Source of the DNA: Sphagnum compactum
Taxonomy: Eukaryota
Assembly: GCA_965153455.1 (NCBI GenBank)
Contig: OZ234493.1
Coordinates: forward strand, 23,860,213 to 23,924,212
DNA: 64,000 nt
Direction of reading: 5' to 3'
Under the pieces are notes generated by a model. That model was not told the DNA's origin, searched no databases, and saw nothing but the letters and a program-made list of their open reading frames with translations. Of the stretch, positions 6,212 through 46,942 are shown one piece after another. Positions within the stretch are counted from its first letter, which is position 1, and every line of letters begins with the position of its first letter. Both the position numbers and the translations under genes were made by a program.

Positions 6212-6242
<31 letters not shown>

Positions 6243-15564: not shown

Positions 15565-16383
15565 TGTCGCAACCCCACTTTGTCCAAGTGTGGGGGTTAA
15601 GCTCAACACTTGGAAAAGTTGCAGGTTTGGAGTCCTCCTGGACTCTCGAATGTTCAGAGCTCGACAGCAAGGGCAAAACACCTCGCATTGGAAAGTTCTT
15701 GGTGTCATTGGAAAGGTCTTGAAACGTAGATATCGAAAATGGCCTCGCATTGGCCATTTGGACATCTGCAGCCCAAGTTATGGGCAAAAGAAGGGCCGGG
15801 AGTCAAACTGGCAGTTTGACTTCCGACCACTAAAAGTCGGGAATCGACCCTTTCCCGACGTCACCTCAGAGAGTGCGACATGGTGTTGGAAAGATCTCGA
15901 CAAGGGCTACAACTTTGGTTTAGACCTCGTCGCGATCGAACTTTGGAGTCGGGAGTTATGACCGTTCAAAGTCCCGAAAGTCCCGCCGGGACAATTTCGG
16001 GACTCCATTTCGGGAGTCCCAACAAAATGTGCCATTTGGATGTAGCCTTCGTGGTGAGCTGCAGAGATAACTATAAGGGGGAAGGTGGTGGCTTCCCCCA
16101 AGTCCGGGTCGTGGTGAGTCAAGTAGTCCGAAGTGCCCGTGGCTTGTCCCAACACCCAAGGGTGTTCCCGAATGTGAACTAACCCATTTGTGGTTGGTTT
16201 TGGATGCAGATTCGTGATTGATCTACTAGTCCATCTTCTTAGTCTAATCCCGGGGCTTCCAACTCGACCCTCTACCCCTTTCTAGAGTTGGAAGTTGGGA
16301 GCGTGCCCTTCGGTCCCCATTTTCCGCAACTTCACATTGGTGAACCCTCAAGTGGGTTCACCCCGGGACCAAGGAGCGCGTCA
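15565..16383. mobile_element. Solo LTR (819 bp) of another LTR retrotransposon family
   Basis: GC/CpG-rich island in AT-rich DNA; termini TGTCGC...GCGTCA (imperfect inverted repeat, TG...CA); perfect 5-bp TSD AGATC at 15560-15564 and 16384-16388; no internal domains. Confidence 0.85.
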
Positions 16384-19200
16384 AGATCCTCTTCAAATTA
16401 TTTTTAATGAGGATCATCTTTTCTATAAGGAACACAACCACCAAAGAAAGAAAAAATAGTGTTAAGGGTGCCAACCTCTTTTTTGCAACCCACCTTTCTT
16501 CTTTAAACCCAACTTTTTTTCATTCATTCCATTTAACTTAGAGTTGTCAATGATTGATTTCCAAATGTTTATGAAGTGAAGAGATCCCATTAGTATACCT
16601 ATATGCTATCATGCCCCTTTTCTAACTTCCAAGTCCAACAATCAAATAACATAAAACACATTTTAATAATTTTTGTGAGGTTGAGTTTAAACTTGAATTC
16701 ACATCAGTTGAAGAGAAAGCCATAGGTGCATAAAAAGCCCAACTTTGGCAACATGGTTTTTATTGCTTTTCAAAAGTCACCTTTGTTGAAAGCTCTCCTA
16801 AACCTTCCATGAACGTAAACCTTGAAAAGAACACAAGCAAAAGGACGAAGGTTAGGAAAACAACAACCATCACAATAGGGGCAACAATAAGAGGATCATG
16901 AAGATGATGACCATTGCAAGAAACAAAATAACAAGAACATCACAAAAACGATGACCATTACAAGAGGGGCAACAACAAGAATGTCACGAAGATGATGACG
17001 ACCATGACCATCACAAGCTTACTAAACCACTACAACCACCATCACCATCATGAGCACTAGCTACTACTAAAAAGACCAACATCATGAAGACCACCACAAC
17101 AACAAATGTTAATTCAAAGAACACTAAGATGACAACCCTCGCAAAACAAGCAACAATATGAAAACAATGAAGAAGAGTTAGAAAACAACCTACCCATGAG
17201 GAGGAAGATTGCCACACATTGAAATATAACCACACATGAGGAGGAAGATTGCCACACGTTGAATTTTATATGTATTTTTTATAACCTGTATAAAGCAACC
17301 CAAATGAGGATATTATAACATATGTATTTTGGGACTGTCCAAAGATTGATTTTTTAATTTTTTTCTTCATGGTGGGCCAATAAAAGGTGCCAATGACAAA
17401 AGAAAAAAAAAAACCATTTGGGGGTCCCCACGACTAATTAATATGAATCAATGGCCTAACGCTCACCCATGGTTTGTTCACTATGGGCAAGCATTTCAAA
17501 AAATGAAATGACCCCCCCAGTGTTTTTGCATTTTTTTCCAAATGATACCAAGTGGGGGGGATTTTTTGAGGGAGGCTTTATGAACAGTAAAGCCCTTGGC
17601 CATAGGCTTCACCAGATGTAGGCCCATGGTTGGTTTTGCCTCACACAAGCCCTTAAAGCCTACAACCTTGGGTTTAACTATCACAAAATGCCCACCCATG
17701 AGGGCATTGTGTGTAGGGCAATGTAGCCGGAGGATTGGGGCATTCCTGAAATAAGCTCTTGCCTCTCAAAGTAAGGTCCTCACCATACTTAACTTCAAGT
17801 TGAGCCAATTTCTTTTGACAATGGACAAGGATTTGCATTTTGTTGCTTCTTTTCTAAAATTCCCTTGATCCTCAAAGCCCCAATACATCAATCGGAAAGC
17901 ACTCAAAGAAAATTTGTAGTGTATGTGAAGGGCACCTTTATGTCCATCAATTTCTCTCCTAGAAATTGGAAGGGATGTTATGCCTACTCTTCAACGATTG
18001 GAGGGAAATTATGTTTACTTGTAGGTGTAAGAACCCTCTCACTATTGAGGAATAAGCATAAGAACCTTCCCATTCATATATATACCTTGTGATCTACATA
18101 GGTTTGGTTCCCTTTGCCTCGTGCTTTACCAAGGGTAAAGCCCTAAGGTGGAGGACATTCCCAAAATGCGGGGTCAGACTCAGCTAACGCCTCATCCTAG
18201 GCCCCTTATTTCGAGAATGCCCCATCCCTAAGGCTTCACCCTACACTATCACAATTAGCACTTAGCATCCCCCCCACATGACCCTAAAAAGACCCAAAAG
18301 CTGTGCATTTGACAGCCCTCATATTGTCATGTTGTGACTTCTTCTATTGCAAATGTTTCTCTTGTTTTTGGGGGGTGCTGTGTCTGAAGTACATTGGAAG
18401 CCTTTTTTGCAACTTGACAAAGTTAGCTGTATTATTCTTTCTTCCCAACACCCTAAACCTGCTCACAAGGCTTCCAGTTCCATAACTTCCAAATGCAAAA
18501 GCAAATGACTGAAATTCTTTCTTTCAAAAAGTGTGCACTATTGGAACTTTTTTTGGGCATAGAATCCAAACAATTCAAAAGAGCAAAACAACCGAACATG
18601 GACAAATCCACTGACTGGCTTCCTTCCAGTCTCCATCCAGTAATGGGTTCCTACGAGGGAGGATACAGATTTTCAACCTGATTGGGTGATATGAGGAATT
18701 GGATCCAGGAAATTTGGGAATTAAGAAGAGGTGACAAAATTTGAGCCGATTGGGTGGGTATATATGGACGGACAAATGGGGGAAATCGAAGGTGTCAAAT
18801 TTTGAGCTGATCAAGTACGTATTAAATAAATAAAAAAGGGGGGAATTGTGCCAAAAATAAAATAATTCAATAATTCAATAAATAAATAAATGGGGGAATA
18901 AGAGGCGATGCTTTTTGAATTGATTTGGGTAGATACGGAAAATTGGGGGAAAAAATATTAAGAGGTGACAAATTTTTAGCGGGTTGTCCAACACCCATCA
19001 TAAAGCACTCGGAGAAAATTTGTAATGTATTTGGAGGACACATAACAACTTAAGTTAATTGTGGATTACATTGCTCTACCCATCCTTTCACAACTTTCCT
19101 TCCTTTTCACTCGGAGAGAAGGAAACCATTTTCAATTCAAATTTACTCTTTGTTTTATGTTTAAACACATGTTTTTAGGAAGGGGACAGACAGGGAGGGG

Positions 19201-19613
19201 GTCAGGCAGGCTGGCGAGGCTCTGAAGACCCCCTAACGAGCTCTGTCCCGCACTGTTTCAGCGTCACTGCCCCCACCACCTGACCCCACAGGCCCCGCCA
19301 CTGGACCCCATGCTTTCTTTCGACGTCCATGTCATTCGGTGAAGCCACCTACACCTTCTCCATGTCATCAGACGGACCCACCAGTTTTCGTCCTCTGTCC
19401 ACCCATGCAGACCATCGTCAATGACACTCATTTCATGTTCATCGTTGAACCTCGCTGCTTCATCGGTCGTCATCGATTGCATCATCAATGATATCTGCAA
19501 CATGATCTGCATTTTGCAAAACAAGGTATGTGTTTTGCAAAAAATGGCGCTCGTAGATCATGTTTGAAATTTCCCTACAAAAGGATGAGTTACACAGTGC
19601 ATTTCACGAGCAA
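19201..19613 (+). repeat. Left terminal inverted repeat of the MULE-like element
   Basis: GC-rich block that aligns by eye with the reverse complement of 36625-37072, with substitutions and small indels. Confidence 0.85.
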
Positions 19614-22152
19614 CAACCTTTGCAATCTGAACCTAAAAATGGCGTTCAAAATCTACCTAATTTTAGATGTAGATGGATAAACTTCATGGCACACCAAACA
19701 CCACAAATTGTGGTAACCCTTACACCACTAGGTTTTCGATGTTCTTTAGCACATTTGAGGTTTCTTCCTCAATGAATAACTTCACTCTTGACACATTTGT
19801 GTTCAACGTTTTTTAGCATTGCAAGATTATAATTTGTTCCTTTATTATAGAAAGAATTCAGGTAGATGTTTTTGAGCTCTACAAAAGTCTTAGGTCTTCT
19901 GGAAGGTCAATCACGTTTTTCGAAGAAGCTGTCTCTTGCCATATACCTGCAAAAATTCAATTTGTTCTACAAGGTCCATTACATTTCAGTCGAAACTTCT
20001 ATTTCCATGTATTGTTTCATAGTTCATTAATTGGGGTCAACATATATAAGCTATGGAAAAGATCAATGTGTTCTGCAAAGACTTTGTTTTTCAGATTTGT
20101 TATCATCTTGCATATGTATAAGCTCTACTGGAAAACTGTATCTTTTAGAAGATCCTCCCTTCTACTGTTCAAATTTCAACGACGGTGTTTTTTCCATACA
20201 ACTTGCATAAAATTGCAAACATCAGTACCATATGCACACCACATTTTTTACTTAAAGTTTATGTAGTTCAAACAAGTATCAATTTCATTTTCTAATATTC
20301 ATATGTAAGAGGTTCTGGTTTGAACTTAATCCATGGCAAGCCCGAGCTACACAATGGTGATGGATGATGCAAGACTAAAAGACAGGGTTAAAAGCCTAGA
20401 TTCCATTGTTAACTTGGATGGTCTTGCGTTCCTCGAAATAATGTCAAGCCCAAAGTACAATGTATTAGTGGATGATCCAACAATCATAAACGATGTTCCT
20501 TCAAGGGAAAGGGACCTTTTCCATAAATTGAAGGCCACAATTCAAGATCCTCCTCTTGGACCTTTTTTAAAAAATGATCTCATGTGGTTGCCACATCTCA
20601 CAAGTGGCCATGGTTTGTATAAGGAAGTTGAGGTTATAGTGATACCATGGAGTCAACTGGAGGATTCTGTTGAAGGGGAACAAAACAATCTAGATTTCCC
20701 TTGCAAGTTTACAAGAACAAAAGACCACATTAAGTCATCTGCCCCAAGCACGTTGACACACCTAAGAACAAATTTTGTTATTCTTATTTATAGGTGCAGA
20801 TTATAAAATGCACAGTTCATCCATTTCATTCCAATGTTAACATTTTATGGATGCTCAATGTATTGAGGCATGCAATGTCTTCATTTCTATCTAATGTTTT
20901 TTTCTAAATATCACAATATGATTAATTTTATGGCAATTTCATAATTTGAAGAATGTCCATGGAAATTTTCATTCCATAACAATTGTTGTGTTTGTAGGTT
21001 TTTTTATAACTTCGGACCAAAAGATAGAACCCATGTTCTTCCAGGAGACATGCAAAAGCTTCTACTATCTATGCAACAAAAACGGAAGTGAAGGAAGGTC
21101 AATGATGCATCCATGAGATGAGACGAAAGGGAAAGAAACCGTTGATAGAGATACATGAATCCACTAATTTGTCAAGGCAAAGCACAAGGATAGGGAAGAT
21201 GATGTCTGGGATGTTAATTAAGCATGGGCGTCAAAGGTCTTTCATTGCAAAACAACCATATTTGGACCACAACTTATGTCAATTGATCTACCTCCATGCA
21301 AAACATACAAACAAAGAAGGAGTGGTTTGCCATGGGACAGCTGTGATTGGATACCGACATGCATTGGGTTCACAATTATCCGATGCCATGAAAGCACACC
21401 TCATGCAACTTTTAAGGCACGGGTTGTCCCTTGCGCAAGTCATGACACGTCATAAATCATATGTCAAGGAACAAGCACAACAGAATGAGCTTTTTACCCA
21501 TGACATATTTGTCTTACCATTAGATGTTAGAAACCTAGCCACAAAGAGAGCCGATGAATTATGGCAAAAACATCTTAAGGACCCAATTAGTGTGAGAATG
21601 TGAGTTTTGGAAAACCTGGAATTGGTGTTCTTTTATTTTGAACATGCCCCTTTGGATCTCAATTTACTGAAGCAAGATGAAACCCTTTTCACATTAGGGA
21701 TTCAAACCACTTGGCAATCAGAAATGATGGCAAAATTTAGACATGGGAGTTGCTTCTCATTTTATGCTACATTTGGAACAAATCAAACCAGGGTATGTCA
21801 TCATCCTCCATTATCCCAATTCCAACACATTGTCTTTCTATAACACAAATTTGATTGACATGGAATACAAATGTGTTTTCATACTAATCATTTTGAACAT
21901 GTTTTCTATGTTTCTCCAGTACCCTTTGTACACCATGATGGTGTTGAATGAATGGCAAAATGGAATACCAATTGCATTCATAATAATTGGGAAAACTTGA
22001 GAATGTGACTTAGACCACGTATTGAGAGCATTATCACAATGAATGCCTAGTGGCTAGATGCCAAACACTATCATTGTGGACAATGCATAAGCTGAAATCA
22101 ACGTTTTGAAGTATGATATGTCACTTCCCTACCTCTCAACACATGGTCATTG

Positions 22153-22382
22153 TGTCATGGCCTAGGATATTTTGGGATACTTTTGGCAATATCATGGCGT
22201 AGGATATTTTGGGATACTTTTGGCAATATCATGGCCTAGGATATTTTGGGACTAGTATGGCTCAGGGTTATAAAAGGAGATAGTCTGGGGAACAACCCTT
22301 TAGCAGATCAACACCAGTTGATGGGTCAATAAATCTTGTCTTGTCTTGTAATTCTCCACTTGTTTGTAGTCGGTCCATAACA
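22153..22382 (+). repeat. 5' LTR (U3 with ~2.6 copies of a 37-bp repeat, TATAAAA at 22269-22275, AATAAA at 22328-22333)
   Basis: Direct repeat of 27920-28149 with about 7 mismatches counted by eye; TG...CA termini. Confidence 0.97.
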
Positions 22383-22525
22383 GTTTGATCTGCTCCTTCT
22401 TCTTGTTTGTTTGTTTTGTTGTTTCAGTAAGTAGCTAGAGGTATATTGGAGTGAAACTTGGAAAGGTTATAGAAGACTATAGGACGCTTCTACTCTCAAA
22501 GTTTCAAAAGAAAAATATATGTTTT

Positions 22526-23176
22526 GAGAGAGATCCAAGCATCTGAAGTTTCAAGTGCAGATCTGGTTTTTTGGTCATATCTCCTTTGTGTAAGCTTTTT
22601 TGGGTCTGTAACTTTGTGATCTTATAGATCATATAGGAATATATGTGTGAGAGAAATTTCATGTCATTTGGACTTGTATTGAGAGAGATTCAAGCATCTG
22701 AAGTTTCAAGTGCAGATCTGGTTTTTTGGTCATATCTCCTTTGAGTAAGCTTTTTTGGGTTTGTAACTTTGTGATCTTATAGATCATATAAGAATATATG
22801 TGTGAGAGAAATTTCATGTCATTTGGACTTGTATTGAGAGAGATCCAAGCATCTGAAGTTTCAAGTGCAAATCTGGTTTTTTGGTCATATCTCCTTTGTG
22901 TAAGCTTTTTTGGGTCTGTAACTTTGTGATCTTATAGATCATATAGGAATATATGTGTGAGAGAAATTTCATGTCATTTGGACTTGTATTGAGAGAGATC
23001 CAAGCATCTGAAGTTTCAAGTGCAGATCTGGTTTTTTGGTCATATCTCCTTTGTGTAAGCTTTTTTGGGTTTGTAACTTTGTGATCTTATAGATCATATA
23101 GGAATATATGTGTGAGAGAAATTTCATGTCATTTGGACTTGTATTGAGAGAGATCCGAGCATCTGAAGTTTCAAGT
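22526..23176 (+). repeat. Tandem array of 155-bp units (~4.2 copies) in the retrotransposon 5' leader
   Basis: GAGAGAGAT(C/T)C(A/G)AGCATCTGAAGTTTCAAGT recurs at 22526, 22681, 22836, 22991 and 23146 (exact 155-bp period); copies are nearly identical. Confidence 0.95.
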
Positions 23177-23214
23177 TTGAAGATTGAAAGCGCAAAAGTG
23201 TGAGAACTACCACC

Positions 23215-24189
23215 ATGGACTACTCAGAATCCAACATCGATCTCACTCAAATCCTCGCCGCCCTTCAGCACCTTCAACAAGAAAATGCCGTGCTTAGAGA
23301 CTCGGTGACCCGCCTACAGAATCAACCACCACCTCCTACCCCAGTACTTCCTGCTCTTGCAATGGCCGCCCAAGAGCCCAAGATCAGTCTGCCAGAAAAG
23401 TTTGATGGAACGCGCCTCAAATTTCGACGCTTTGTCAGCCAGGTACGCCTGATCATGCAACTACACCCTCGTCGTTATTTTGATGACACCACTCGTGTAG
23501 GATTCGTTGGAACCCTACTCACTGGGACAGCTGCAGCATGGTTTGCTCCCATCCTGGAAACATCATCCCCTCTTCTACAAGATTTCAACGCCTTTATGGC
23601 GAAATTTGAAGCAGTATTTGGGGACAGTGATAAGGCCAGGACTTCAGCCAACAAGCTGCATCGCCTCCAGCAAGGGACACGTTCGGCCATCGTCTACGCG
23701 TCAGAATTCAGGCAGCTTGCCTATGACGTCAATTGGGGAGAAGCTGCCTTGATTGATCAGTTTTGCTATGGGCTTCGTGATGATGTTCAAGATCTTTTGT
23801 TGACACTCGCAGACCCTTCTTCCTTCAGTGAAGCCATCACCCAGGCAATTCGGTGCGATAATCGTCTGTTCGAACGTCGCTAGGAGAAGAAAGTCACCTC
23901 CAACGCCCAGCTTTGGAACAGTCGGCCTACTACGCTCCCCTTAGTTCCCCAAACAACACCAGTTGCCCGACCTGCCTCTTTTGGACCTGCTCCGATGCAG
24001 ATCGACACAGCTAAGTTTAAATCTTTGACAGAAGCCGAGAAACATCGCCGAAGGACAAACAATCTATGTCTTTACTGTGGTAACCCAGGGCATATAGCTC
24101 GTCAATGCTCTCAAAAGCTTGTCAAACTTCAGGTACAAGCTGTGGAAACTCCCCAGGAGTTGGAAAACAAGAACATCCAATCACAGTAG
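23215..24189 (+). pseudogene. gag: gag (PEG10/Rtl-like capsid plus CCHC zinc knuckle) with a premature TAG at 23881-23883
   Basis: PEKFDG..KFRRF, LLTGTAAAW, L.QG..S...YASEFR.LA, ..GLRDDVQD; continues in frame after the TAG to PMQID and [14 protein letters not shown]. Confidence 0.9.
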
Positions 24190-27100
24190 GAGCCGTGCGA
24201 CTGGATCTCACCCAACACCACCTTTGCAAAGGCTCCTGTTCCACTGTTGGTCCCAGTCCCAGTTTCACTCAATATGTGGACATCATTCGTATTCCAGAAG
24301 ACATACCACAAGTGTCAGCTTTGGTGGACTCCGGCGCCACCTCTTCTTTCATCGACCAAACATTTGTCGTCCAACACAACATCCCTGTGGTCAAGAAGTC
24401 AACCCTTGTTCCGGTAGAGGTTATTGATGGGAGAACCATTGCTTCTGGTGCAATCACACACGAGACAACCCCTCTAGAACTCTGTATCGGCAAGCACACG
24501 GAGAAGATTGTTCTCAACATCATTTCCACCCCTCACCATCCCATCATCCTTGGTCTGCCTTGGCTAGAAGCACACAACCCTATCATTGATTGGCGATCTA
24601 GAACCCTCACCTTCAGCGCACAACGATGCACCTCTCAAGAACCCCACGCTCAGAAAAACACTTTGTCCAGTCCTGCCAAGAACCCTGTGGTCGAGAACCC
24701 AAAGAGGGTCGGAACCAATTCCAATTTTATCAAGTCTGTTATGTCAAATCCTGCAGTCAAGAACCCCCGGTTGGTCAGAACGAAACCTTGTCCTGTCAAG
24801 AATCTTGTCAAGAATCCTGCCCAGAAAACCAACCCTGTCCAGATCTTCGTTGATAGAGCTGTCCCTTTCTATCGGGCTGCTAAGAATCTTTAAGTCTTCG
24901 CCATCCATGTCAACCCAGCCAACACCACAAACCCCCAATTAGAACCAACACCTGTCAAACTTCCCAAGAAGTACAAGGACTTTGTTGATGTTTTTTAAAA
25001 GATTAATGCTGATCAGCTCCCTGCCCATAGTCCATATGACTGCCCGATTGATCTAGAAGAAGGACACTCACCACCCTTTGGTCCTATCTGTGGCCTATCG
25101 GAACCGGAACTCCAAGCCCTGCGTGATTACCTTACTGAAAATCTTGCCAAGGGGTTCATTCAGCATTCCAAGTCTCCAGCCGCCGCCCCAATTTTGTTTG
25201 TCAAGAAGAAGGATGGCTCCCTTCGACTCTGTGTGGATTATCGTGGACTCAACAAGATAACCAAAAAGAATCGATATCCTTTGCCCTTGATTTCAGGTCT
25301 TCTAGATCGACTACGTACCGGGAAGATCTTCACCAAGCTTGACCTCCGTGGAGCCTACAACTTACTCAGGATTCGCCCTGGTGATGAATGGAAGACAGCT
25401 TTCCGCACACGCTATGGCCACTTCGAATACACTGTCATGCCCTTCGGCCTCACCAATGCACCCGCAGTCTTTCAGCATCTGATGAATGATATCTTCCGGG
25501 ATTACATGGACGAATTTGTCGTGGTCTATTTGGATGACATTTTAATCTTTTCCAAGGACCAGGAAACCCACGACAAACATGTACGATTGGTGCTTGCAAC
25601 GCTGCGGGAGCATGGCTTATACGCCAAGTTGGAAAAATGTGAATTCGATAAATCTTCAGTGGCGTTCCTCGGCTACGTGATCTCTCCAGATGGCATTTTC
25701 ATGGACAAGTCAAAGGTCGAGACCATCCAGTGTTGGGCTACTCCATCCTCGGTCAAGGACGTTCAACGCTTCCTAGGGTTTGCCAACTTCTATCGTCGAT
25801 TTATCAAAGGCTACTCCAAGATCACAACACTGTTAATAACCCTGACTTGCAAAGACAAGCCCTTCTCGTGGAATCCAACGGCCTAGGCTGCTTTTGATAC
25901 TCTTAAGATGGCATTCACCTCTGCACCCATCCTGATACATCCCGATCCTGCCAAGCCATTCATTGTGGAAACGGACGCTTCAGATTTTGCCTTGGGAGCT
26001 ATTCTATCTCAATTTGGAATAGATGGGTTGCTGCATCCAGTTGCTTTTTATTCACGGAAGTTAACCAGTGCCGAAATCAACTACCAGGTCTACGGTAAGG
26101 AACTTCTGGCAATCATCATGGCATTCGAGCAATGGAGACCGTATCTTGCCGGAGCTCAACATCGAGTCCAAGTTCTGACAGATCACAAGAATCTCCTTTA
26201 TTTCACAACTACTCGGACCTTAAATCGTCGCCAGGCACGCTGGTCTATCTTCCTAGCTGATTTCGACTTTGAGATTCAGTATCAACCCGGCACCCAGCAA
26301 GGGAAAGCTGACGCACTATCTCGTCGTTCAGAATATGAACTTCGAGCGGGGGATGAGGCCTACAGCCAGCAGAACCAGACTTTACTCAACCCCAAGCAAT
26401 TTCGAGTTGCAGCAACAATCAGCACCCTCCCAGACTCATACCTTGTCAGGGACATCAAGATGGCAACTGAGGAAGACACCTGGGCTACCAACATCAAGAA
26501 GGAACTCCAGGAACGACCAAGGAACCCAAATCGTGATGACTTGGATCAATTTGAGCAGCAAGACGGACTTCTCCTTCGAAATAACCTGATTTATGTACCC
26601 GAAGGACCTATACGCCTAAAAATCCTGAGGGAATGCCACGACAACACCCTGGCAGGTCACTTTGGAATGGCACGGACTCACGAACTAGTGTCAAGGACTT
26701 ACTGGTGGCCCAAAATGAACAAGATGCTACGGGAGTATGTCAAGTCTTGTGATACATGTGCTCGATCCAAGGCTCCCAGGCATCGCCCGTTTGGACTCCT
26801 ACAGCCTCTGTCGATTCCTAACCGACCTTGGGATCTATTGTAATGGACTTCATCACGGACCTCCCTACTGTCAGAACCAAGAATTCAATACTGGTTGTGG
26901 TCGATCGACTCACCAAAATGGCCCATTTCACCCCTTGTTCCAAGTCAATCACGGCAGAAGAGACAGCTCAGTTAATTCTGGACGGGATCGTCCGACTGCA
27001 TGGACTCCCCGAGGAAATTGTGTCCGACAGAGGTCCTTAGTTTGCATCCAAGTTCTGGCATCGTCTATTCGAGCTTCTTAGAGTTGACATTCGGCTATCT

Positions 27101-27919
27101 TCAGCTTTCCACCCTGAGACAGATGGACAAACCGAACGGACAAACCAGACACTCGAGCAATACCTTCGCTGCACTGTGAACTACCAACAAGACGACTGGC
27201 TGGACCTACTATCTCAAGCAGAGTTTGTTTATAATAACACAACACATGCATCGACCGGGGTCAGTCCATTCTTTGCCAATTACGATTTTCATCCCAGGTT
27301 CAGCCTTGAAATTCCTAGAGACTCTGTAAACCCCTCGGCTGAAGAAAGGGCCACGAGGCTTGGACAGGTTCAACAGAACCTTATGGCAGAACTCAAGCTA
27401 ACACAGGAGTGGCAAAAGAAGCAAGCAGACCGCCGACGCAAGGACCATCCAAACTTCAAGGTTGGAGACAAGGTCTGGCTTCTCAGAAAGAACATTGCTA
27501 CCACTCGCCCATGTGCCAAGTTGGATTACAAGCGCCTTGGACCTTTCAAAATCGCCAAATTGGTTGGTCTAGTGGCTTGCCAGTTGGAGCTTCCACCCCA
27601 GTTCAAAATCCACAATGTTTTCCATGTCTCCCTGCTTGAGCCCTATCATGAAAACCCGATCCCAGAACGTCATCAAGAACCCTCAGCTCCAGTCGAAATT
27701 GAAGGCCAGAAAGAGTTTGAAGTTCAGGAGGTCTTGGACTCCAAGAAGATTCGTGGAAAGCTCCTGTACCTTGTCTTTTGGCGAGGTTATCCTCCTTCTG
27801 AAGCTACTTGGGAGCCTGCTGGAAACCTAGTTCATGCCCAAGACTTAGTTAATCGGTTTCACTAACGATATCCTAACAAACCGGCTCCATCTAGAAGATG
27901 TCGCTTGAGGAGAGGATAA
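24162..27919 (+). pseudogene. pol: pol (aspartic protease, RT, RNase H, integrase, chromodomain) in the -1 frame relative to gag
   Basis: ALVDSGATSSFID (PR); [35 protein letters not shown] (RT); ETDASDFALG, TDHKNL (RH); HD...GH...CDTC, MDFI, SDRGP, TDGQTE (IN); FEVQEVLD....LYLVFWRGY....TWEP (chromodomain). Stops at 24891, 24996, 25884, 27038 and 27863; 1-nt frameshift near 26831. Confidence 0.95.
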
Positions 27920-28149
27920 TGTCATGGCCTAGGATATTTTGCGATACTTTTGGCAATGTCATGTCCTAGGATATTTTGGGATATTTTTGGCAATATCATG
28001 GCCTAGGATATTTTTGGACTAATATGGCTCAGGGTTATAAAAGGAGATAGTCTGGGGAACAACCCTTTAGCAGATCAACACCAGTTGATGGGTCAATAAA
28101 TCTTGTCTTGTCTTGTAATTCTCCACTTGTTTGTAGTCGGTCCATAACA
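27920..28149 (+). repeat. 3' LTR
   Basis: Follows the PPT, is a direct repeat of the 5' LTR and is followed by TSD CATTG. Confidence 0.97.
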
Positions 28150-29363
28150 CATTGGGTGACAATGTACATGGATGTTCATATCCTATTCCATCCATTTCAT
28201 TATTGTTTGGGGCATCCATCTCCAAAATATTATTAATGTTTGCAAATCATTTCCATTCATTATAAGTGTCACTTTGTTTCCCTGTACACTTATTTATATA
28301 TGACCATTGTAATTTTAGGGAGTTGTTTCATATCTTTCCACCATTGCATAGAATAGAATGTTTTTAGGAATGTTGTAGAAACTTGTAGGTTTGCTCTAAT
28401 GTTCAATATCTCATGTTATTCTTGTTATTTTCTATTGTTATTTCAACATAGGAATGTTTGGCCAGATGCCCAAATTATATTGTGCTTGTGGCATGTCCAG
28501 AAAGCTTGGGCTAAAAATATTGTCAAGAAGATTGTAAATCCACAAGAAAGACCCAACGTCCTATCAATGCTTGGGAGGATTATCTATTCTTGAAGATGTC
28601 CCATTGATGCTGACCCTATTTTTTGGGTAGAACAAGAAATTGAAATGCTCGCAACAAATTTTCCCAATGTAAGACTTTTCATTCAATACCTTAAAGAACA
28701 TTGGTTGCAAAAGGTAAGAATGTGGTGTGTTGGAAACCATAATATACCACTGCAGGGTAAGGACACAAATTTTGCGGTGGAATCATTCCATAGCAACCTT
28801 AAGCAAATTTTGTGTTCTTCACGAAAAAAAGTTATAGAGTGTCGAATGGATTAGCTCATTTACCACCTAGTTGGTGATGTCCTTACTCACTATTGGTATG
28901 GTGTGCAATGCAAGATCTTTGGTTACATCATGAACAAAAAAAGTGAAGGAATTGTCGTTAGTGTTATGCTTCGAGCCCGTGACATCTTATCCACCAATGT
29001 TTTGTTATACCCAAATGGGGATGACATTGCTTTCGTGGCGTCTTGTAATCCACCCAAGGTCTGGACCATGCATGCCCTGGGTTCTGAATGGCTTTGATGC
29101 GACTGGCCTCTTGCAGCACAAAGGATTATTTGCAAGTTGTTATAAAAATTTACAAGATGCTCTATCCAACCATTCTTAATGGTGCGATTGTTTGAGAAAC
29201 AAGTATTTTTCATGGGGTGCAAATGGGATCCCTAGTAATAGACTTGCCAACTCTTGAAGACTTGTTTCTTAAAGAGGAACACAACCTTCCACAAATCGAG
29301 GACTTTCCCACCTCTCAAGATATAGAACATCATGATCTCTTGCAAACAAGCAACATCAGCAAC

Positions 29364-29517
29364 CACTACTACAAAATGTGGGTGCAATTCACTAGTCCCC
29401 GTTCACTAGACCAATGAATTCACTGCTTCTTCACTAGTCCCTGTTCATTATAACTAGTGAATTCATTCAAAATCCAGTGAAATCACTTGGCGTACGGGGA
29501 CACCTTTTGTTGTAGTG
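29364..29517. mobile_element. 154-bp non-autonomous CACTA (En/Spm) element
   Basis: Termini CACTACTACAAAA and TTTTGTTGTAGTG (12/13 inverted match); 3-bp TSD AAC (29361-29363, 29518-29520); internal TTCACTAG/CTAGTGAA subterminal repeats. Confidence 0.9.
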
Positions 29518-30472
29518 AACCTGATTGAACTAATGTGGCTTGAAGTATTAAACACAACAATGGAAATTCCAACCTTGCAACGACATTTGTTCTTGTCATT
29601 GAAAGTTATTAAAGGCAAACAATAGGACATGCTTACATGCGGATTGGCTAGGTTGGAGCATTCGAACGACTAGCATTTGTTCCCAATGAATCCTAGTGAT
29701 AATAGTTTGAAAATGCACAAAGGTGTGCTTGAACCTAAAGGTGCTAATTTTCACAATTTAAAAGACAAAACAACCATGTTTATTTGCATTTAATTGGATG
29801 TTCACGCTTGTAGAAATCTACTTTGTTAGTAGCAAATCTCAATTGTTTAGGCCTTACCATGCATCTATTGGTGACAAATGTGCATTTCCTAGTAATTGGC
29901 TATACACAAGCCTCCAATAAAGAATCTATGCCTTTTAAGGTTCTCAGCATATACTCCCATCAATAGCCTAACATTATTTTGAGCTCGCAACTATGGATCT
30001 TACTTTGTCAATTTAAAGCACACAAACCACCATATTACAATGATGTTCTCTAGTCCATGCTAGTTTTATTACTTTGATTGTCTCTATAGTGGTTGCCTGC
30101 TTAAGAAAGTTCATTGATACCAAATTTATCTACATACTTATTGCTAGAACAATTAGTTGGTTAGCATATGTGCATCATGTTTTTAGAGAATGCAATACCC
30201 AATCACCTAATCCACAATTCAAGTCAAGGGCAAACATGTGTATTTTCATGTCTATGAAGCACATATGCAAAATGTTCTAAAATCAAAAAAGGAATGAAAG
30301 GTATAAAATTCAAGGAAAATATGAGAACATTGCATAAATTACAAATGTTTATGTACATATGTTTGTTACATAAAGTCCGGTCTACAAAAACATAGTGAAA
30401 AGCCATATAGCCAATGGTCAACAAACTACAACAAATGCCAGAGGCACTTATAAACAGGAACACACATGTAGA

Positions 30473-33400
30473 CTAAGAAACGTTGGAGGACTTTGAAACA
30501 TAATGGACGTGCTTTCGAGTTCTACCACTTCTTCGAGTTGTAACACCACTCCCAGATGCTACAGAGGTCAATTCAATGCCCTCATGTTGTTCTTCCAAAT
30601 CAACAACCCACTTTGTAGATTTGTCTTCAGAACCTTTTATAATTTGCACTGGTACTTCCACTAGTGTGGCTCGAATTGCCAATGCATCACACCTTGAAAA
30701 CCATGTGGGGGTCATCTATAAGAAAACATGTATAACGACATAAATTTGTGTTTAATACATTTGGAAAAAAACTTGCGCATGGAGAGAACGTAGTTTTGCA
30801 CTTAAAGGCTTAAACGCACATACTTCAATGGACGATTCCAGGTCTTTTACAATGTAGTCACAAAAGTTTTATATGAATTTCATAACATAAAAGTAGAAAT
30901 CCCCAATCCGATTGTTGTTGTGGACTATCAAACCACACCCAATTGGATTTTGAAAGTGTTTGTTTCCACGCACATGACCCTGAAAAGTTGCCTTCTATAA
31001 TTGCCCATACTTTTGTAAAAAAATAATAAGATGGCATTATGAAATAGGTTTGCATAGGTGAAAGGATCATAATGAAACAAATGTTTTGCACTCAAGATCA
31101 AAAGACTCGAATGATTAACATCTTGGATTGGGATAAATATTGCCTTCATTGTCGCAAGCAACTAAATTTTTTTGTGGAGGAATTGAATGACACTATGCTC
31201 AAACTCCCCTTTTTTTTTTCTCCAGTTCTTAACAATCTTCCACGTAAGGGGATGTGTGATGTATAAATCACAAAATGAAGATGTTTGTGCATAAACCACA
31301 ACTTGAAAAAATCCATAGCGTAAGTGGAAAGGTGACCTTCATTACAGTCGAAGAGGGTAACATCTGCATCAATTCTTAATCACCTAAAATTACAAAAGAA
31401 ATTGCAGAATCTATCATCCCACCTCTGGAGTCAATGAATTTTTTCACCATTATCATCAACTTGTTTCACAATTATAGTTTCAGCTACAAGTGTCAGTGAT
31501 GGCTTTGCTTGAAGATTGAGAAACAAAATCCAATATTGTAGCATGTTGATAGTTGGCATATACAACTTAAGGTCTATGCTTGGAGGTCAAAAATATCATC
31601 AATGACAAAATATGCCATTCCAAAAATACAAGAAAACAATGCTTAAAACAATTGCATTGCAAACTTAAAATTTTGATAAATAACCCCATTATACAACTTG
31701 TACATGAATTGTTTGCTAGTTGGGCTTGTCTATGTGGGAAAAGGTATACAATCTTACAAGACTCGATACATGGATTGAAGCAAGTAAACCCTAAGTCCTT
31801 AACACATAATTGTTACTTACTTTTGCTTTGTAAGAATGGTTGCAACTATAATGTCCAATTGTTCAATTGTTGTGTCTTCCTCATGCTTTGCAACAACCTA
31901 TAGGGTCACTGTATTTAACTACAACTTGCATGTCTAAGGTTGGCTGCAATTGCAGTGTTTTTGCTTCCACACCTCATAGTTCAAATTGGGTATTGCTCTT
32001 AGAGGGTTATGAAAGCAATCCCTATGAGGTCGGAATCCTAAGGACAGTGAAGGTGTCTGTTTGAATCCAGTGTAGGTCACTGACATTATTGTTGACTGCA
32101 ACGAAATGGCCAGGCTTAGATTGTTGACATAGGATTATAGATCAAGTTCAAACTCCTCCTTCATGCCTTGCCTATGATTTTTAGTGTTGATAATCTTACC
32201 AAACAACCCAAATGGCATATGTTCACAGGTTGTTTTTTGCAGCACCTAAGAGGAAACATTTGGGAGAATGGAATCTTCAACTTGTAAGGGCACAAAATCA
32301 AGCGCATTTGATGAACCAACACTTGCAAAACATTGTAGAACCATGATTGATCTCTTTAGGAATCTAAATTTAATGGTTCAATTGGGTTAGTATTCACCAT
32401 GGACTGAAAGAACATTAAAAACAACAAACTTGGAAAACATAGTCCTAGATGGTATTTGTTGTGGTGTTGTCATTTCTTTCTGATGTGTTGTTCTCATTTG
32501 TTGCAACTGCCAACTGGGGTTTGATTCTGCTGAACTTCACATGCAAAGCAAGGACTTGACTATCCATGATTTCAACCAATGCAGTGGTGCATTTAAGATG
32601 TTGGTTTGAAATAGTTCCATTAGCAACAAGGGAAAGCTTCCCAAGGAAGACCTAGCCAATGTTTATTTCTTCCTAAATAAGCAAAGCTTCAAAAACCACA
32701 TGAAGGCACTAAGTTCAAGGGTTAGGTTTCTATAATGCAAAGGAACTTTAAAAGGGATCTTTCTATTACAAAAATGAAAGATTGGCAGTTAAGATGGCAA
32801 CAAATTAAATCAGATACTTGCTCCAAATGATTTCAGTCATCATGGCCATTTGGGAAAACGCACCACATAGCTTTCAATTCCAATGTCATTCCCACTTTTT
32901 GCATGTTTGAGATTGCTCTATGAGCAATTTTTGACATGAACCCAATAACCTTTTCAATAACTGGCTCCTGTTGTTGAAGATCAAATCCAAGAAGGCCCAA
33001 CAAGTCTTGGCAACATTGCTTAACTTCTTCAATGCACTGCTATTGTTTTAGAAACCATAAAAATCCATAATCCAAAATGTCTTAGACTACTATGGTTAGT
33101 TAGACAAAATGGGACTGATCCTAATAGTAATGAAGGATGTTGCGATGAGTCAACCCCATAATAGCATGAGTAAGTGGATGTAGTCTCCCAAAAGTGTTTT
33201 TACAAAATAACTTGAATGCACGAATGATGTGAGGGCATTCCATGTTAAGTGACAATGGATGCAATTCTTTATCCATTTCTAACATGATGGTTTGTAGCTC
33301 CTTTTCAGTGTGCTCCCAATGGCATTGAGGTCCAACTTGTAAAGGAAATCGTTTCAACAAATGGTATACTGGTGACCAACCCCATTTTGCCCTCTCTTTT

Positions 33401-36400
33401 GTGGCCTTGACATGTTTGTCAAATTTGTGCAATTCCTCTTGAACATAGTCTTCCTTCTTTTTTTTCAAAGTTTCTGTAGCTCCTATCTTCTTTTCATCAT
33501 ATTCCTTTTTTAGTTGTAGGGATTGCAGGTATTCCTAGAGGCACTTCATTTGATTAAACCTATTCACTGTGTTTTCTCCACCCCCTCTAGATGTCTATGC
33601 ATTGAGGGATGACAATGTCACTAATGTGGCTTATCCTTTCAATCCCTCCACCAACTTGCATGGAAAAAGAAAAAGGTAAAAAAACATTGTTTAAAAATAA
33701 GAACCAAAGAAATTATTTTTTTGCAAACTTTATAATACTTACAAGTGGATAAAGTTACCATTGGCTAAATGCAGAAACTAGCATGTTACCCATAGCGCTT
33801 CTATTTCCATGTTCATCAAAAGTGCCATAGTCTTTTCAGGCTTTTCCAAGATCTTCCTATCCATCACAATGTCTGTTTCTGATAAAAGAACATAAAGTCC
33901 ATTGATTTCCACTTTTGTTGGGGAAGGAGGCAGTTCACAGGAGCTCTCAACTATGAATTTTTTTGCCATTGCTTTCACCTTTGCTTATACATTAGCTCTT
34001 GTGAAATGCATTGTATTCCTTGGCGGCGTAAACCCAAATGGGAATAATGACAGGAGGGGGGGGTTGTTCTATTTTACTTAATAGACGGTTTATTGGGTTT
34101 TGCATGCTACAATGATTATTTTGTACGTACATTATTTTATGTTCCTTGCTTGTTTGCAATAGACCCTGAAAAGCTCCAAAATACCAATGTTAGAAAAGAA
34201 ACATGCCAATATTTGCCATTGCAAATGTCAACTTGTAGCCAGGAAATAAAATGTAGGAGAGATGAAGAATTGTACATGCTTTCACACTACAACTTGATGA
34301 GAAATCTTCATCGCTACTTAGTTCATATACTTCTCTCTGCTTTGGATGTATGGGTCTTGGAGGTGGCATACTAGATGGCTACTTTTATAATTTTGGTGGT
34401 GCAGCCTTTTTTGTGGTCTGTTCTGCCACATCATCAATTATTCGTTTACTTTGGTTTGGGAGTGTTTTCCCAAACTTCTTCCCTAACTTATTGAGCTCTT
34501 TAAGCTCAATTTTTGTCATTGTTGGATACATTTTGAACAGTTCATCGCCTGTGTAATGAGGGCACAAATTCATCATTATGTGGTAAGACAAAATACTTTT
34601 GTCTTTGAATATATATCCACATAACTTGTATTCAAATGATGGCCTATTACTTATAAGCACATCAATGCATTAAATGTCAAAATATGCTTCCAAGGCCAAT
34701 TACTCATACTCGTTTTCAAGGTACAAGGTGACACAATGATGTTTATTTTGCTGCATTGTGGACTTGTAAGTCTTGCTCTTCCCTTGCGGCTCCAAATATT
34801 TGCGATGGCAAGATCATTGGTTGTCATTTCCCACTACATCAACAACCATGTATTTTGACACAACAACACACATTGTACCTCATGGCAAAACTCAGCAAAA
34901 CAACCATCACATCTATAGTTGCAACATCATGATATTGAAACATGAAGCAATGAGACACAAATCTCATCACATGCACAACACATTTCAATACCCACAAAAC
35001 TACTAAAATGCAATCCCAAACCTCTTGTTTTAATTTCTTAAGATTTACAATTGGGTTGTGTTCTGCATGCACTTATTTGTTTATTCTCGCAAGGATTGGC
35101 TATTCACTAAAAGGATCATGGGCACAACGGACTACTACCACAACAACAACAACTACTACAATTACTAGTTTGGAGGGAAATTGGATAAGTACCTACAACA
35201 TTGTTGCAGTGACATAAGATTCAGCTACAATAACAAGTGCAAAAGATTCAACTATAATAAAAAGTGCAGACAAGGGGGAGGAAAGTATGTACCTTCTAAG
35301 ATTTTAAAGGGATTATGTGGAACCAAGACCTAATGTCAAATAATAACCTTGATGCTCCTTCTACTCAATCTTAATTGATTGAGGGACTGGAAGCAATGGC
35401 AAAACAAATTGAAATGCATAAAAAAAAAAGACTAAACATGTGAAATGCAACCAAGAGATTTTGTTCAAACAAAAATGAAGAAAAAGTCATAAGAAGCTGT
35501 TACCTACATTGAATTCCTCTTGTATTAAAAGCATAACACCAAAATCCTAGATCGTAAACAAAGTTATACTATGTTTAGAATTGAACTTCAACTTGGATTC
35601 TACTTAAATTAACAATATTGTTGACAATATAATTTAACCTAGCATGCTTAGGCATGCTTGAGAAAAGCCCATGAATGGTCTTATTGTTGCAACTATGAAT
35701 TCTGGTAGAAAGTACCATGTACGTTTATGAATAAAAAAAATCTAAACTCACTTGACTTGCAAAAAGAAAATATTGTAATAGATAGTAGCTACTACTCGTG
35801 CTCCGTAACTCAAAACCAAACATCTCACTCATCACATATTCTAGACATGGCAATCAAAAGCTTACAACACAACTTACATAAAAAGGACAACAAAAGCATG
35901 TATTAAACAAGAGAGAAATCAAGCACCCATTGATTCTTGGTTAGTCAATGTTTCCAAATTCTAGATGGATTGTCGGTGAATCAAGGTTTTTAAGTATGCT
36001 ATGTACTTGGATTTTCCCAACAATGAAACAACAACTCCAAGTGACTACATTCTAACACACACAATGAAAGGAAAAACAATAATGAAATGGGAGACTCACC
36101 CTTTCTAGCCATCTTGTTGCTGCTGACTTTACAATATCCATGTATTTTTATTGACCAAGGAGGCAAATCATGTAGGGGTCTTCTTGAGCAATTATCGGCA
36201 AAACCTCTTGTAGCAAATGTTTGCGCTTTCCTTCATTGTTTGTTGCCATCACCATGACTTCAAAGTCGTCAAGCTTTAAGATGTCTTTGGTCCCCAATGT
36301 AACAAATTCAATGGTGTGGGCGTTGTCCACAACTGTGATATTCGACTCAATTTGTGCAAAGTTTGCAGTGATTTCATAAGGCGTAAAGTTGTGTTGTTCA

Positions 36401-36453
36401 ATAAAGCTTATAGCTGCAGATTGCGTGTTCTCTTTGGGAAAAACACCTTCCAT
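30473..36453 (-). pseudogene. Decayed multi-exon accessory gene of the MULE element, with a Ulp1/peptidase C48-like domain near its C-terminus
   Basis: Minus-strand fragments at 36148-36453, 34385-34660, 33778-33978, 33121-33468, 30858-31161 and 30473-30715. IFIPIQDVNHSSLLIL..FHYDP and PQQQSDWGFLLL resemble Ulp1 motifs (IPI..xHW.L...YDS; QQ..DCG). Minus-strand splice signals: GTGAGT near 36099, GTAAGT near 33743, TTTTCTTATAG acceptor near 30716. Confidence 0.6.
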
Positions 36454-36624
36454 GATTGACGAAGCTTAATAATGCAACACAAGTAAATACAACACAAGCT
36501 TGTTACGTGCTCCAGTATTGAATTTGTTAAACTTGTCATTTTATCAATCAATGTAACACTCGTAGTATTGGAAGTACATGACGAAATTGTTGCAACTCAA
36601 CCCTAAACCCTAAACCTTCATATT

Positions 36625-37072
36625 TTGCTTATGACATGCACTGTGTAACTTATCCTTTTGCATTTTAAAAAGGGAAATTTCAAACATGATCTGTGAGTGC
36701 CATTTTTTGTAGAACACGTACCTTTTTTACAAAATGCAGATCATGCTATAGATATCGTCGATGGTGTTGCAGTCGACGATGACTGATGAAACCGATCGAT
36801 GAAGCAAGTTTCGATGACGAACGTGAAATGAATGTTGACGATGGTTTGCATGGGTGGACGGAAGACGAAAACTAGTCGGTCTGTTTCATGACATGGAAAA
36901 GGTGTAGGTTGGGTCACCAAATGACATGGACATTGAAAGCGTGGGGTCGAGTGGCAAGGCATGTTTTGGAGGTGGAAGGCATGAAAGTGTTGTAAGGTGG
37001 TGGGGCAATGACGTTAAAACAACACTGGATATAGTTCGTTAGGGGGTATTTAGCGCCTCGCGGCATGCTGGG
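36625..37072 (-). repeat. Right terminal inverted repeat of the MULE-like element
   Basis: Reverse complement of 19201-19613. The spurious ORFs 19264-19524 and 36741-36962 are just readings of these TIRs. Confidence 0.85.
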
Positions 37073-37699: not shown

Positions 37700-40257
37700 T
37701 TTTTTCCTTCTTGCCCTAGCTTTGGCGTCCTTAAAGATAGTTAACGAATTGCTAGCTTTGCACTTGCTAAACATAGATTTCCTTGCTTGGATTATTTGTT
37801 GGACTTTCAATTAGACTCAAATCTTGAATTTTTTGTGGATTCTTTCAAGTCGACATTTTTGTGCATGTCTCATTTGTTAATTGGTGGTCCATTTAGCATG
37901 GTCTTTGAACATTTTCAATATTTTTTTGACCATGAAGATTTAGTGAATGGCTTCATTTAGCTCCACCAGTTATGTTCCCATGTGGTTGCCACCCGCATCC
38001 CTAGGTCTATGGCTTGCGTTTTTGGGGCTAATTAACTTTTGGTTTTGGCCTGGTGGCATTTATTTGATTGTAGTTGGAGAGACATTCTATCAGTTGGTGA
38101 ACAAGGTTTTATGTTTGTAGTTTCATGATGCATTTGTTTCTCATTTGTCACCATATTAGTTCGAGTTGGCAATTATAAGAAGTTGTGAGGCCATGTCCAT
38201 GGTATTTGGGCCACTTTGGATGCCCATCCTAATTGGGTGGTGTTTCAAGTAAATATTGCAAACATTTTCAACACCATTTCACATAAGGCTATTTTAAAAA
38301 AACTTTGGGCAATGGAGGTTAGTTATTCTAGTTTTTCCCATTTGTTTGTTCTATGGCCTTTAGGTTCCTTTGTATTTCAATCATCATTCTTCCTTGGGGG
38401 CCTTGTTATCGTAATTCTATTTTTGGGGGACATGCATTAGGGTGACCCGGTTGCCAGACCTTTCATTTACACTAGCTCATTTTTGTGTTTTACGTTGTTT
38501 TTTTGGGGTTTTCCCTTCCTGTCTTTTCCTTTCCTTGGCTAACGACACCCATATCTTCAGCCCTACCCATGTCGTTTTTTTCACATTTGATCATTTTGCT
38601 TCCCAATTGGCTTTTGTGGGGTTGTTTATTCAACCTTGCAAGTGCTTTGCATGGGCTTCATCTAACTTACTTCTTGGGTTCGTCCCCTTTGTCAAGTTTT
38701 TATTGCCTCCTTAATAGCATTAAGATCCTTGGTGTCCCCTTTGGCTTTGCTTCTTTCGCTTCTTATTTTTTGTAGGAGGTTTTAGGTGAAGATGTTCGGC
38801 ATGCAAACATGCTTTCAAGATTAGAAGGTGGTTTTGTTATCATCTCTTGATGTCTCGCCCAAAAGCCCTCCTTTTTGTTTCATTGCTTCGCCCCTTCTAG
38901 GTTTTTGGAGTTAACTCGTTGTTTTTAAATCCACCTTAATGGGAATTTCTGAGAGACTTTTGGGTGTGGGCTCATTGGATTGCCTTGAGGTCCTTTTAGT
39001 CCATTTGTAGGTGGCTTTCCCCATTTCTAATGGGGGCGTATGGTTGATTTCCTTGGAGGTCATTATTCTAATTGCTTATTTAAAGAGTTGGGCCGTAATA
39101 ACCCCTATCATAATTTCCAAATTTTTGTTGGATTCTCACCCATTCTTGTTGGAGGTGATAGGTGTGAGTAGTTCAAGGCCATTCCTTTTCTAGGCGCATT
39201 TTGAGATTAACATGAAAGCTTATTCCCCTAGGGGCTATAACATGTGTCCCCCCTTTTGAACAATTAGATGAAAGAGGCGCATAACGCTTTCATGAGAATA
39301 TTTTTAAAAAATTGCATGACCATTTTTTTACTAGCATCTTTTCTAATTTACCTTCTGATTCATTTGAGGTTGTGTGCAAGGCCAGGTGTGAATGTTTGAT
39401 TGTTAGCTTACCCAATCGTTCTTTTCTACAACTTGCCTTTAGATGTTTTTTCCATCACATTGCACATTAGGTTGGGTCTTTCCCATAAAGTCCTTGGGGT
39501 GTCACATTATATTCATAGCCAACCTTTGGATCCTATGTGCATCCACCTTTTTTGCTATACACGTGGTGGAGGAGAAGATGACTTCGCATAATGTTATGTG
39601 AAATACTTTTGCGGCCATTCTGAAAGATGCAAAATTTCATGTTTCGCAAAGGTAGACCCATGTCATTTTGTCCTCTGCCTTACAATTTTCGCATCATCAA
39701 GTCGACATTGTGTTATCAATTGATGATGTTTGCACATTGGTAAACATTGTCATCATCGACCCCACTTGAGTTGATTTGGTTTTGTAGGTTGTTTTTTCTT
39801 GTGAGGTTGCTACGATAATCACAATTCAGGTGAAAGATGGTCTTTATCATGATTGATTCTCGATGAATATGTTTCTCCCTCTAACATTGATGTGCCAACA
39901 TGGTGTGGGGGAGCGAAAGGCATTGGAGGCCCTCCTTTCTCAAATTTGTAGCATTTTATAGGCAAAGGGTGTTAGTGACGTTACAACGTGCACATGTGAT
40001 CTTTATTTTGAGATGTGCTATTGCAATAGGTGAGGGTTTTTCTGGGCTAAGCATCCTTTCAGGAGGTCCTCCCCTTTTTTTATTTGATATGCTTCTCGTG
40101 ACAAGAAAGGGTTCAAAAACTGGATGTTCCCCTTGTGATTCAGCCTCTTAGGTGATTCCTTTTGTCTTCTTGGACGTGGATCCTTCCATTTTGTTCCTTG
40201 TATTCCCCCTTTCTTGGATGGGTTGGTTTATTTATGATTGGCAAGGTTTCATCATCT
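37700..40257 (+). mobile_element. Decayed non-LTR retrotransposon with RT, zinc knuckle and restriction-like endonuclease (CRE-like)
   Basis: Fragments VGETFYQLV, LDAHPNWVVFQVNIANIFNTISH (D..NAFN), GDP, LANDTHI (xADD), GVP, RLGL.H, VDIVL...DP; 3' end CAAGGTTTCATCATC. Many stops; 5' boundary approximate. Confidence 0.75.
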
Positions 40258-43198: not shown

Positions 43199-43530
43199 GT
43201 CAATTTTGCCAAAGTGGCGATGATCCACAGGAAATACGATTTAGCCAAATTTGGCTTACACGCTAAATACGAAAGTAAACATCCTTCCTCTGTATTCTGT
43301 GGCTACCTACTTGAACCAAAAGTGGTAATGTACGATCCATAGGAAGCAACATTTAGCCAAATTTGGCTACAAACTAAATATGGAAGTAAACATCCTTCTT
43401 CTGTATGTTGTGGCTACCTCCTTAACCGAAGTGGCGATGTATTATCCACAGGAAGGAAGGTTTAGCCAAATTTGGCTACACACTAAATATGGAAAGTAAA
43501 CATCCTTCTGGATTTGTGGCTAATACCTAC
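43199..43530. repeat. Three tandem ~108-bp units, each containing the palindrome TAGCCAAATTTGGCT(A)
   Basis: AAGTGG...ATCCA.AGGAA...TTTAGCCAAATTTGGCT...CTAAATA.G.AAGTAAACATCCTT at ~43213, 43320 and 43429; related motif at ~49696. Confidence 0.8.
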
Positions 43531-43631
43531 TGGAATCGATGTCCAGAAATCTGACGATTTTTCTTAAATTTGTTCGAATTATGGCTATTGAAGATTTAAC
43601 AGCAGTTTTATTTTTCAATACAGATTTTGGC

Positions 43632-46910: not shown

Positions 46911-46942
<32 letters not shown>

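Follow-up and report, generated by a model that had tools for sequence, protein, structure and literature searches.

Does a repeat-bounded element in the moss Sphagnum compactum represent the transposon lineage from which a family of SWIM-domain genes, normally treated as plant host genes, was domesticated? The question was raised by a sequence-only reading of a window of 64,000 nucleotides (contig OZ234493.1 of assembly GCA_965153455.1, positions 23,860,213 to 23,924,212; coordinates below are those of the window), which described an 18-kb, two-gene Mutator-like element (MULE) and linked its transposase to the Arabidopsis SWIM proteins At1g60560 and At4g13970. Our analysis makes it likely that the locus holds an old insertion of an approximately 11.7-kb MULE of the terminal inverted repeat (TIR) type, with two convergent genes for a transposase and an Ulp1 accessory protein, which later died and which is a cousin of the At1g60560-like genes. 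The ends of the element, its target-site duplication (TSD), selection on both genes, the decay of the copy and the order of the nested insertions are demonstrated in the following sections.

Boundaries, decay and nested insertions of the element

The element belongs to the Mutator/MULE group, as it has long TIRs and a 9-bp TSD, its transposase homologues contain the MULE domain, and it is found at multiple insertion sites. Sister copies were collected by searching metagenome contigs with an alignment of transposase exon 4 and two homologues, which yielded 52 loci (prefixed L), 13 of them 83–89% identical to the window at the DNA level and one, L029, containing a full-length copy at 6218–18072. 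Self-comparison of the window gave a sole long inverted pair, 19214–19613 against 37061–36625, which is 72.9% identical over 446 columns (E 1.8e-73) and agrees with the diverged TIRs of about 410 bp that had been described. The left TIR (19214–19613, + strand, about 400 bp, first letters GCGAG) is 78–81% identical to sister-locus TIRs, the right TIR (36625–37061, - strand) was also recovered by alignment, and the TIRs of L029 are 80.5% identical.

Although the element had been placed at 19201 to 37072, the terminus register shared across loci sets its ends at 19214 and 37061. At the left, GCGAG or a near variant of it marks the terminus in the window and in L003, L011, L035, L029, L013 and L024; at the right, it does so in the window and L029. 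Directly outside these termini lie GGCAGGCTG (19205–19213, + strand) and GGCATGCTG (37062–37070, + strand), a 9-bp TSD with one mismatch (8/9), the left junction letters being identical in the orthologous loci L013 and L024. In the related family L041 the 9-bp TSD is perfect. A duplication of 9–11 bp had been predicted, and the 9 bp found fall in that range. Alternative TSDs at 19202/37083 in the window and at 6190/18082 in L029 were rejected as being of low complexity or beyond the shared terminus.

The two genes of the proposed 18-kb element are both present, but its size was inflated because two younger insertions, a long terminal repeat (LTR) retrotransposon and a 154-bp CACTA-ended insert, are nested inside. 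Without them the core measures 11,689 bp, close to the 11,855 bp of the full-length sister in L029. The larger insertion (22153–28149, + strand) is a full-length Ty3/gypsy chromovirus that lies in transposase intron 3 and carries stops; it has 230-bp LTRs (22153–22382 and 27920–28149) with 7 differences (97% alike), TG...CA ends, a 5-bp TSD CATTG, and Pfam matches to Retrotrans_gag, RVT_1, SH3_Tf2-1 and Chromo. Its 5' LTR is followed by a tandem array of about 4.2 copies of a 155-bp unit (22520–23176), and presumably the element resembles the Tcn1-type chromoviruses of mosses. The insertion is recent and unfixed, because the site is empty in the 12 close sister loci spanning it and in runs X2, which has the same species label, and X7, which has a different one; contigs of both join 22147 to 28150. 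In RNA run X22 (one library, 12% read) this high-copy chromovirus family is transcribed, and no reads were found in the transposase bins 19874–21784 and 28155–28791. The smaller insertion (29364–29517, strand unassigned) is a 154-bp non-autonomous element with CACTA ends and a 3-bp TSD AAC, absent from the sister loci; its high copy number is seen in a depth about 50 times that of the surrounding MULE and in many loose ends at both borders.

As predicted, the + strand encodes a spliced transposase, in which four exons are joined in frame through three GT-AG introns; the first follows the Tyr-Arg that precedes the FGP motif, the second comes ahead of YPL and the third ahead of the CxxH exon. 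Exon 1 (20333–20793, in an open reading frame (ORF) at 20330–20806, with an inferred start codon and a donor site) encodes the QDPP module and is 31% identical to P0265, an angiosperm protein discussed below. Exon 2 (20998–21792; 27% to P0265, E 4e-19) contains FGPxD, HxNKxGxxCHG and LGIQTxWQ; exon 3 (21920–22110) contains the second catalytic Asp; and exon 4 (28452–29793, end approximate; 28% to P0265, E 1.6e-20, and 51% to homologue P0004) contains CxxH, the catalytic Glu, a damaged SWIM finger and the C-terminal tail. The CLWH and TNxxxE motifs that had been recognised are both there, but the motif read as D.TFG is YATFG in this copy, the first catalytic Asp in exon 2 having been replaced by Tyr. 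Stops and a frameshift occur in exon 2 and again in exon 4, and four stops in exon 3, giving at least eight in-frame stops and at least two frameshifts overall. The full set of D, D, C, H and E residues is preserved in L011, L012, L017, L020 and L028, and L017, a member of a more distant family, is close to intact and seems to have the same three introns (read by eye).

Exon 3 matches the Pfam families MULE (PF10551, E 1e-4) and ZSWIM1-3_RNaseH-like (E 4.5e-5), both below the curated cut-off. Full-length homologues match MULE above the cut-off (P0031, E 3e-11). A search of the homologue library gave 441 matches at E ≤ 0.001, of which the best 150 were listed; the N-terminal piece of the transposase as query retrieved 0 of 504 candidates, and a PDB sequence search with the transposase profile gave no match. 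In the atlas, P0031 lies nearest to clusters of SWIM/MULE proteins from plants and of unnamed MULEs from animals and fungi, which we take as a lead only. Codon-position mismatches between families reach 0.26–0.28 at position 2 versus 0.50–0.52 at position 3.

Seven left ends could be compared and fall into four insertion sites, namely that of the window, L013 and L024, that of L003 and L035, and those of L011 and L029. In L013 and L024 the left junction is as in the window and is accompanied by about 1.7 kb and 0.8 kb, respectively, of matching flank at 83–89% identity; diverged hosts therefore have this insertion in common. The right junction is also crossed by a contig of run X7. Orthologous and paralogous copies are about equally different (10–16%, mostly transitions). 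The spread of the family is ancient, and decay has affected every close copy recovered. The window copy is a long-dead MULE that is not mobile; of the autonomous-type mobile family that had been proposed, the two-gene layout stands, whereas the copy itself is dead, with its stops, frameshifts, lost catalytic Asp and two nested inserts.

Further observations concern the sister copies. In L013 and L024, the transition rate relative to the window is 0.05–0.06 in the flank-containing stretch and about 0.10 in the element interior, as expected if the element is methylated. At window position 20144, ahead of transposase exon 1, the copy lacks a stretch of about 155 bp that every close sister locus has. 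Short contigs L017, L018, L020, L006 and L028 encode related transposases whose catalytic residues are intact and whose aligned portions have 0–1 stops; these are younger families from which an active element could come. Transposase relatives without trace of the second gene occur in L019/L021 (4754–14061) and L031–L033, L021 being TIR-bounded and 9.3 kb long.

The convergent second gene and its Ulp1-like domain

The convergent spliced gene of about 6 kb announced for the - strand is present at 30473–36453, with inferred start and stop and an estimated 1,200 codons, and is broken in the window. Translated comparison with divergent families showed that segments of the - strand between about 36260 and 30480 are conserved, at 32–51% amino-acid identity. 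In eight segments compared between families, mismatches at codon positions 1, 2 and 3 are 0.36–0.48, 0.24–0.42 and 0.48–0.66, respectively, and the third-position excess is found in 8/8 segments, following the pattern of the transposase; the segments were picked by protein similarity, which somewhat favours such an excess. From this codon pattern we conclude that the second gene has evolved under purifying selection between families.

Near its C-terminus, the motifs HW, YD, PQQ and CG outline an Ulp1/Peptidase_C48-like domain (30820–31460, - strand) with H, D, Q and C motifs, which in the window is frameshifted and, by our own reading, has Trp at the Cys position. Two of five sister fragments match PF02902 above the cut-off of 20.7 bits (L024, E 4e-8, 33.8 bits; L046, E 1.5e-4, 22.1 bits) and two more, L013 and L014, fall just below it, which substantiates the earlier hint at an Ulp1 domain of the kind known from KAONASHI elements. 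The C48 H and D are invariant in 8/8 rows of alignment A4. Upstream, a zinc-finger-like motif C-x2-C-x12-H-x5-C (34555–34640, - strand), pieced together from several copies in alignment A5, gives a weak C2H2 match in Pfam (L029, E 0.023), and the middle-region ORF has no usable match in the atlas. Against the PDB, the protease profile has its best match in SENP8 (E 0.17, a lead only), and nothing meaningful was retrieved by sequence for the finger or middle regions. AlphaFold models of the protease and middle regions were too poor for a fold search (predicted local distance difference test 33 and 39, respectively). Among the 26 loci that extend downstream by more than 5 kb, the second gene is at least partly present on the opposite strand in 18, its Ulp1 part in 11 and all three parts in 8, in a survey whose profiles were built from some of the surveyed loci and in which several loci are one site in several samples.

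What might the two proteins have done? Cut-and-paste transposition by a DDE transposase is established for MULEs. While the family was active, the product of the + gene would have been a DDE transposase that bound the TIRs, excised the element and reinserted it with a 9-bp duplication. The - gene would have supplied an accessory protein ending in an Ulp1-type cysteine protease. Its target may have been SUMO or a different ubiquitin-like tag, carried by the transposase or by the chromatin of the element, and removal of the tag could have helped the element to escape silencing or repair control. Stripping of a ubiquitin-like tag in aid of such escape is the most likely role of the second protein, a proposal on which we place about as much weight as we withhold. 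The copy then died and later received the chromovirus and the mini-CACTA element.

Each ingredient of this element has precedent, and the two-gene layout with a SUMO-type protease is already known in other plant transposons. Maize MuDR (mudrA/mudrB) likewise has long TIRs, a 9-bp TSD and two convergent spliced genes, but PF03108 was not found in relatives of the moss element, and the second gene of about 1,200 codons with a protease differs from the short mudrB. MULEs carrying ULP domains, including forms with TIRs and in reverse orientation, are reported within MuDR-like and Jittery-like clades from Arabidopsis, melon, rice and grapevine, for which repeated capture or repeated loss of the domain has been proposed (PMC2528002, PMC4948706), and also from hydra and lancelet (PMC2836005); a 2026 review places the capture of Ulp1 by non-TIR MULEs at the divergence of monocots and eudicots (PMC13317346). 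The function of the Ulp1 domains is described as unknown in PMC4948706, PMC13317346 and PMC2836005. The moss element shares with the C48- or KAONASHI-MULEs of Arabidopsis, melon, rice and grapevine a MULE transposase and a second gene with Peptidase_C48, and both reverse-orientation and TIR forms of them are described. However, they are angiosperm elements of MuDR-like and Jittery/FAR1-like clades, whereas the FAR1 (PF03101) and MuDR (PF03108) DNA-binding domains were found in 0/34 homologues of the moss transposase at E ≤ 0.05, about half of which are fragments without the N-terminus, and likewise not on the window transposase pieces. The finger-like motif of the moss second gene and its middle region, which matches nothing compared, are a further difference. 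No published case of a C48-MULE in mosses was found in a literature search that missed most subscription papers. With this element, the range of MULEs that carry Ulp1 widens to include a moss and a distant branch of transposases, which bears on whether Ulp1 capture was repeated or ancient.

Two other accounts of the second gene have to be set against the tag-stripping role. It could be passive cargo, a host gene fragment captured in the manner of a Pack-MULE and without a role in transposition; gene capture is common in MULEs (PMC2528002), and the second gene is missing from 8/26 loci and its protease part from more. Yet the third-position excess holds in every segment tested between families whose transposases are only 51–55% identical, and the position and orientation of the gene are kept in many families, which makes mere cargo quite improbable. 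The gene could instead encode a sequence-specific anti-silencing factor that, like VANC or KIU, binds short motif arrays in the element, an idea that gains from its finger-like motif and from the Ulp1 domain of KIU-type VANC genes in VANDAL MULEs (PMC13317346). We consider this unlikely, although somewhat less so than passive cargo, since no dense VANC-type array was found in the element (the top-scoring 8-mer occurs 6 times, z 7.9, a value reached in 2/40 simulated sequences), the finger and middle regions match no solved structure by sequence, and KAONASHI and VANDAL (KIU-VANC) elements proper are without TIRs whereas the moss element has them.

Relation to the At1g60560-like genes of angiosperms

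The likeness of the transposase to the At1g60560 SWIM protein, from which the question started, is genuine: P0265, a Hibiscus protein labelled 'like AT1G60560' by its source, aligns collinearly to all four window exons at 27–31% identity. No protein retrieved bore the label At4g13970. The listed homologues also include P0120, annotated in Perilla as a 'SWIM zinc finger family protein' (27%, E 6e-14), and an angiosperm protein ranks about 115th among the best 150 of 441 matches to P0001. A profile search listed 120 of 648 matches, all of them close to P0120 (67–88%) and from monocots, magnoliids and eudicots where named; the profile included P0120, which biases the listing. Other members of the group are P0246 from Acorus and P0267 from Magnolia. 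Across the 120 listed angiosperm proteins the acidic columns are nearly invariant (D 118, D 120, E 120), FGP[ED] is found in 120/120, HxNKxGxxCHG in 112/120 and a QDPP-type motif in 72/120, but CxxH in 0/120, with mostly SxxR instead. The moss element and the angiosperm SWIM group thus share collinear four-exon homology, N-terminal motifs, D-D-E and the SWIM region, but the angiosperm proteins are conserved and without CxxH, whereas the moss element is multi-copy, decayed and bounded by TIRs and TSD.

Two unrooted trees were built, one of 41 rows under LG+G4, from which 10 short or duplicate rows of 51 had been excluded, and one of 24 rows under a mixture model. Both recovered a moss-family clade (support 100/99 or better) and an angiosperm clade (100/100 or 100/99), separated by a backbone without resolution that includes at least five other unnamed lineages; in the 24-row tree, the unnamed P0056/P0131 form the sister group of the At1g60560-like clade. 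Constraining moss and angiosperm rows together cost 12.1 log units with an approximately unbiased (AU) test p-value of 0.116, so that their union is neither favoured nor rejected. Scores against P0265 are 313–371 bits for P0101, P0061, P0141 and P0031, 222 for L017 and 169 for the window, the last being lowered because the copy is decayed.

The sequence-only reading had gone further and taken the moss family for the lineage from which the host genes were domesticated. If the family were the surviving donor lineage and sister group of the At1g60560/At4g13970 genes, the N-terminal motifs in common with the 120 listed angiosperm proteins and the AU result would be accommodated, and P0061, P0101 and P0141 may be products of domestication in their own right, in which case the moss family would count among the closest mobile relatives. 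However, the sister relation was recovered in neither tree, four other lineages score 1.4–2.2 times higher against P0265, and the angiosperm protein ranks far down among the listed matches to P0001. We therefore find little reason to expect descent from this family, and of the earlier proposal the homology survives, while the sister placement was neither recovered nor rejected. What the alignments and trees support is that the moss transposase and the At1g60560-like genes belong to the same broad MULE branch, as cousins. This broad plant branch probably also yielded the angiosperm genes by an independent and much older domestication.

The reading of the locus as an old, dead, two-gene MULE and cousin of the At1g60560-like genes has to be held against several observations, which weigh against it. 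No TSD was found for L029 or L019/L021, and L009 offers only 7/9 (read by eye). Pfam searches with the three larger window transposase pieces gave no family at E ≤ 1, PF02902 had no match in L009 or the window fragment, and the window's own pieces of the two genes reach no Pfam cut-off. None of the recovered loci is an intact copy of the window's family. The second gene leaves no trace in 8/26 loci, including the TIR-bounded L019/L021, and is therefore dispensable or was lost there. In addition, the trees lack an outside root.

A list of 67 exapted genes compiled by Hoen and Bureau in 2015 may include At1g60560 or At4g13970. Neither gene was found in the main text or 10 supplements of PMC5715367, nor, by these gene identifiers, as an exapted gene in the literature searched. 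The moss element, bounded by TIRs and TSD, offers a mobile point of comparison for a gene family of angiosperms that is unstudied and whose DDE triad persists in monocots and eudicots. The near-invariant D-D-E and lost CxxH of these angiosperm proteins raise the question of retained catalytic activity, and with such a reference, whether this is another exapted MULE family, and still a nuclease, becomes testable. More tentatively, and with rather low confidence, it is conceivable that a deep, undescribed plant MULE branch gave rise to a conserved, DDE-intact seed-plant gene family and, in mosses, to an accessory system of its own (zinc finger, unknown domain and SUMO/NEDD8-type protease) independent of angiosperm KIU/VANC. 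If so, protease-based anti-silencing either arose convergently or greatly predates the monocot-eudicot split to which KIU has been dated. The seed-plant gene family concerned does not figure as exapted in the literature checked.

Other features of the window

Outside the element, the window contains a BIRD/IDD C2H2 transcription factor gene (45386–47792, + strand) with a low-complexity C-terminal exon, its IDD part matching Pfam at 45389–45979; the presence of this gene marks the host as a land plant. A dispersed repeat occurs in three degraded copies (65–70%) at 38364–40094, 55175–56965 and 63214–63802, and the ORF at 63347–63919 has no Pfam match. Two short inverted-repeat pairs of about 76% identity (11570–11962 and 42142–42858) are probably similar to miniature inverted-repeat transposable elements, and tandem arrays lie at 61301–61858 (unit of about 190 bp), 5602–5992 (62–125 bp) and 43209–43535 (112 bp).

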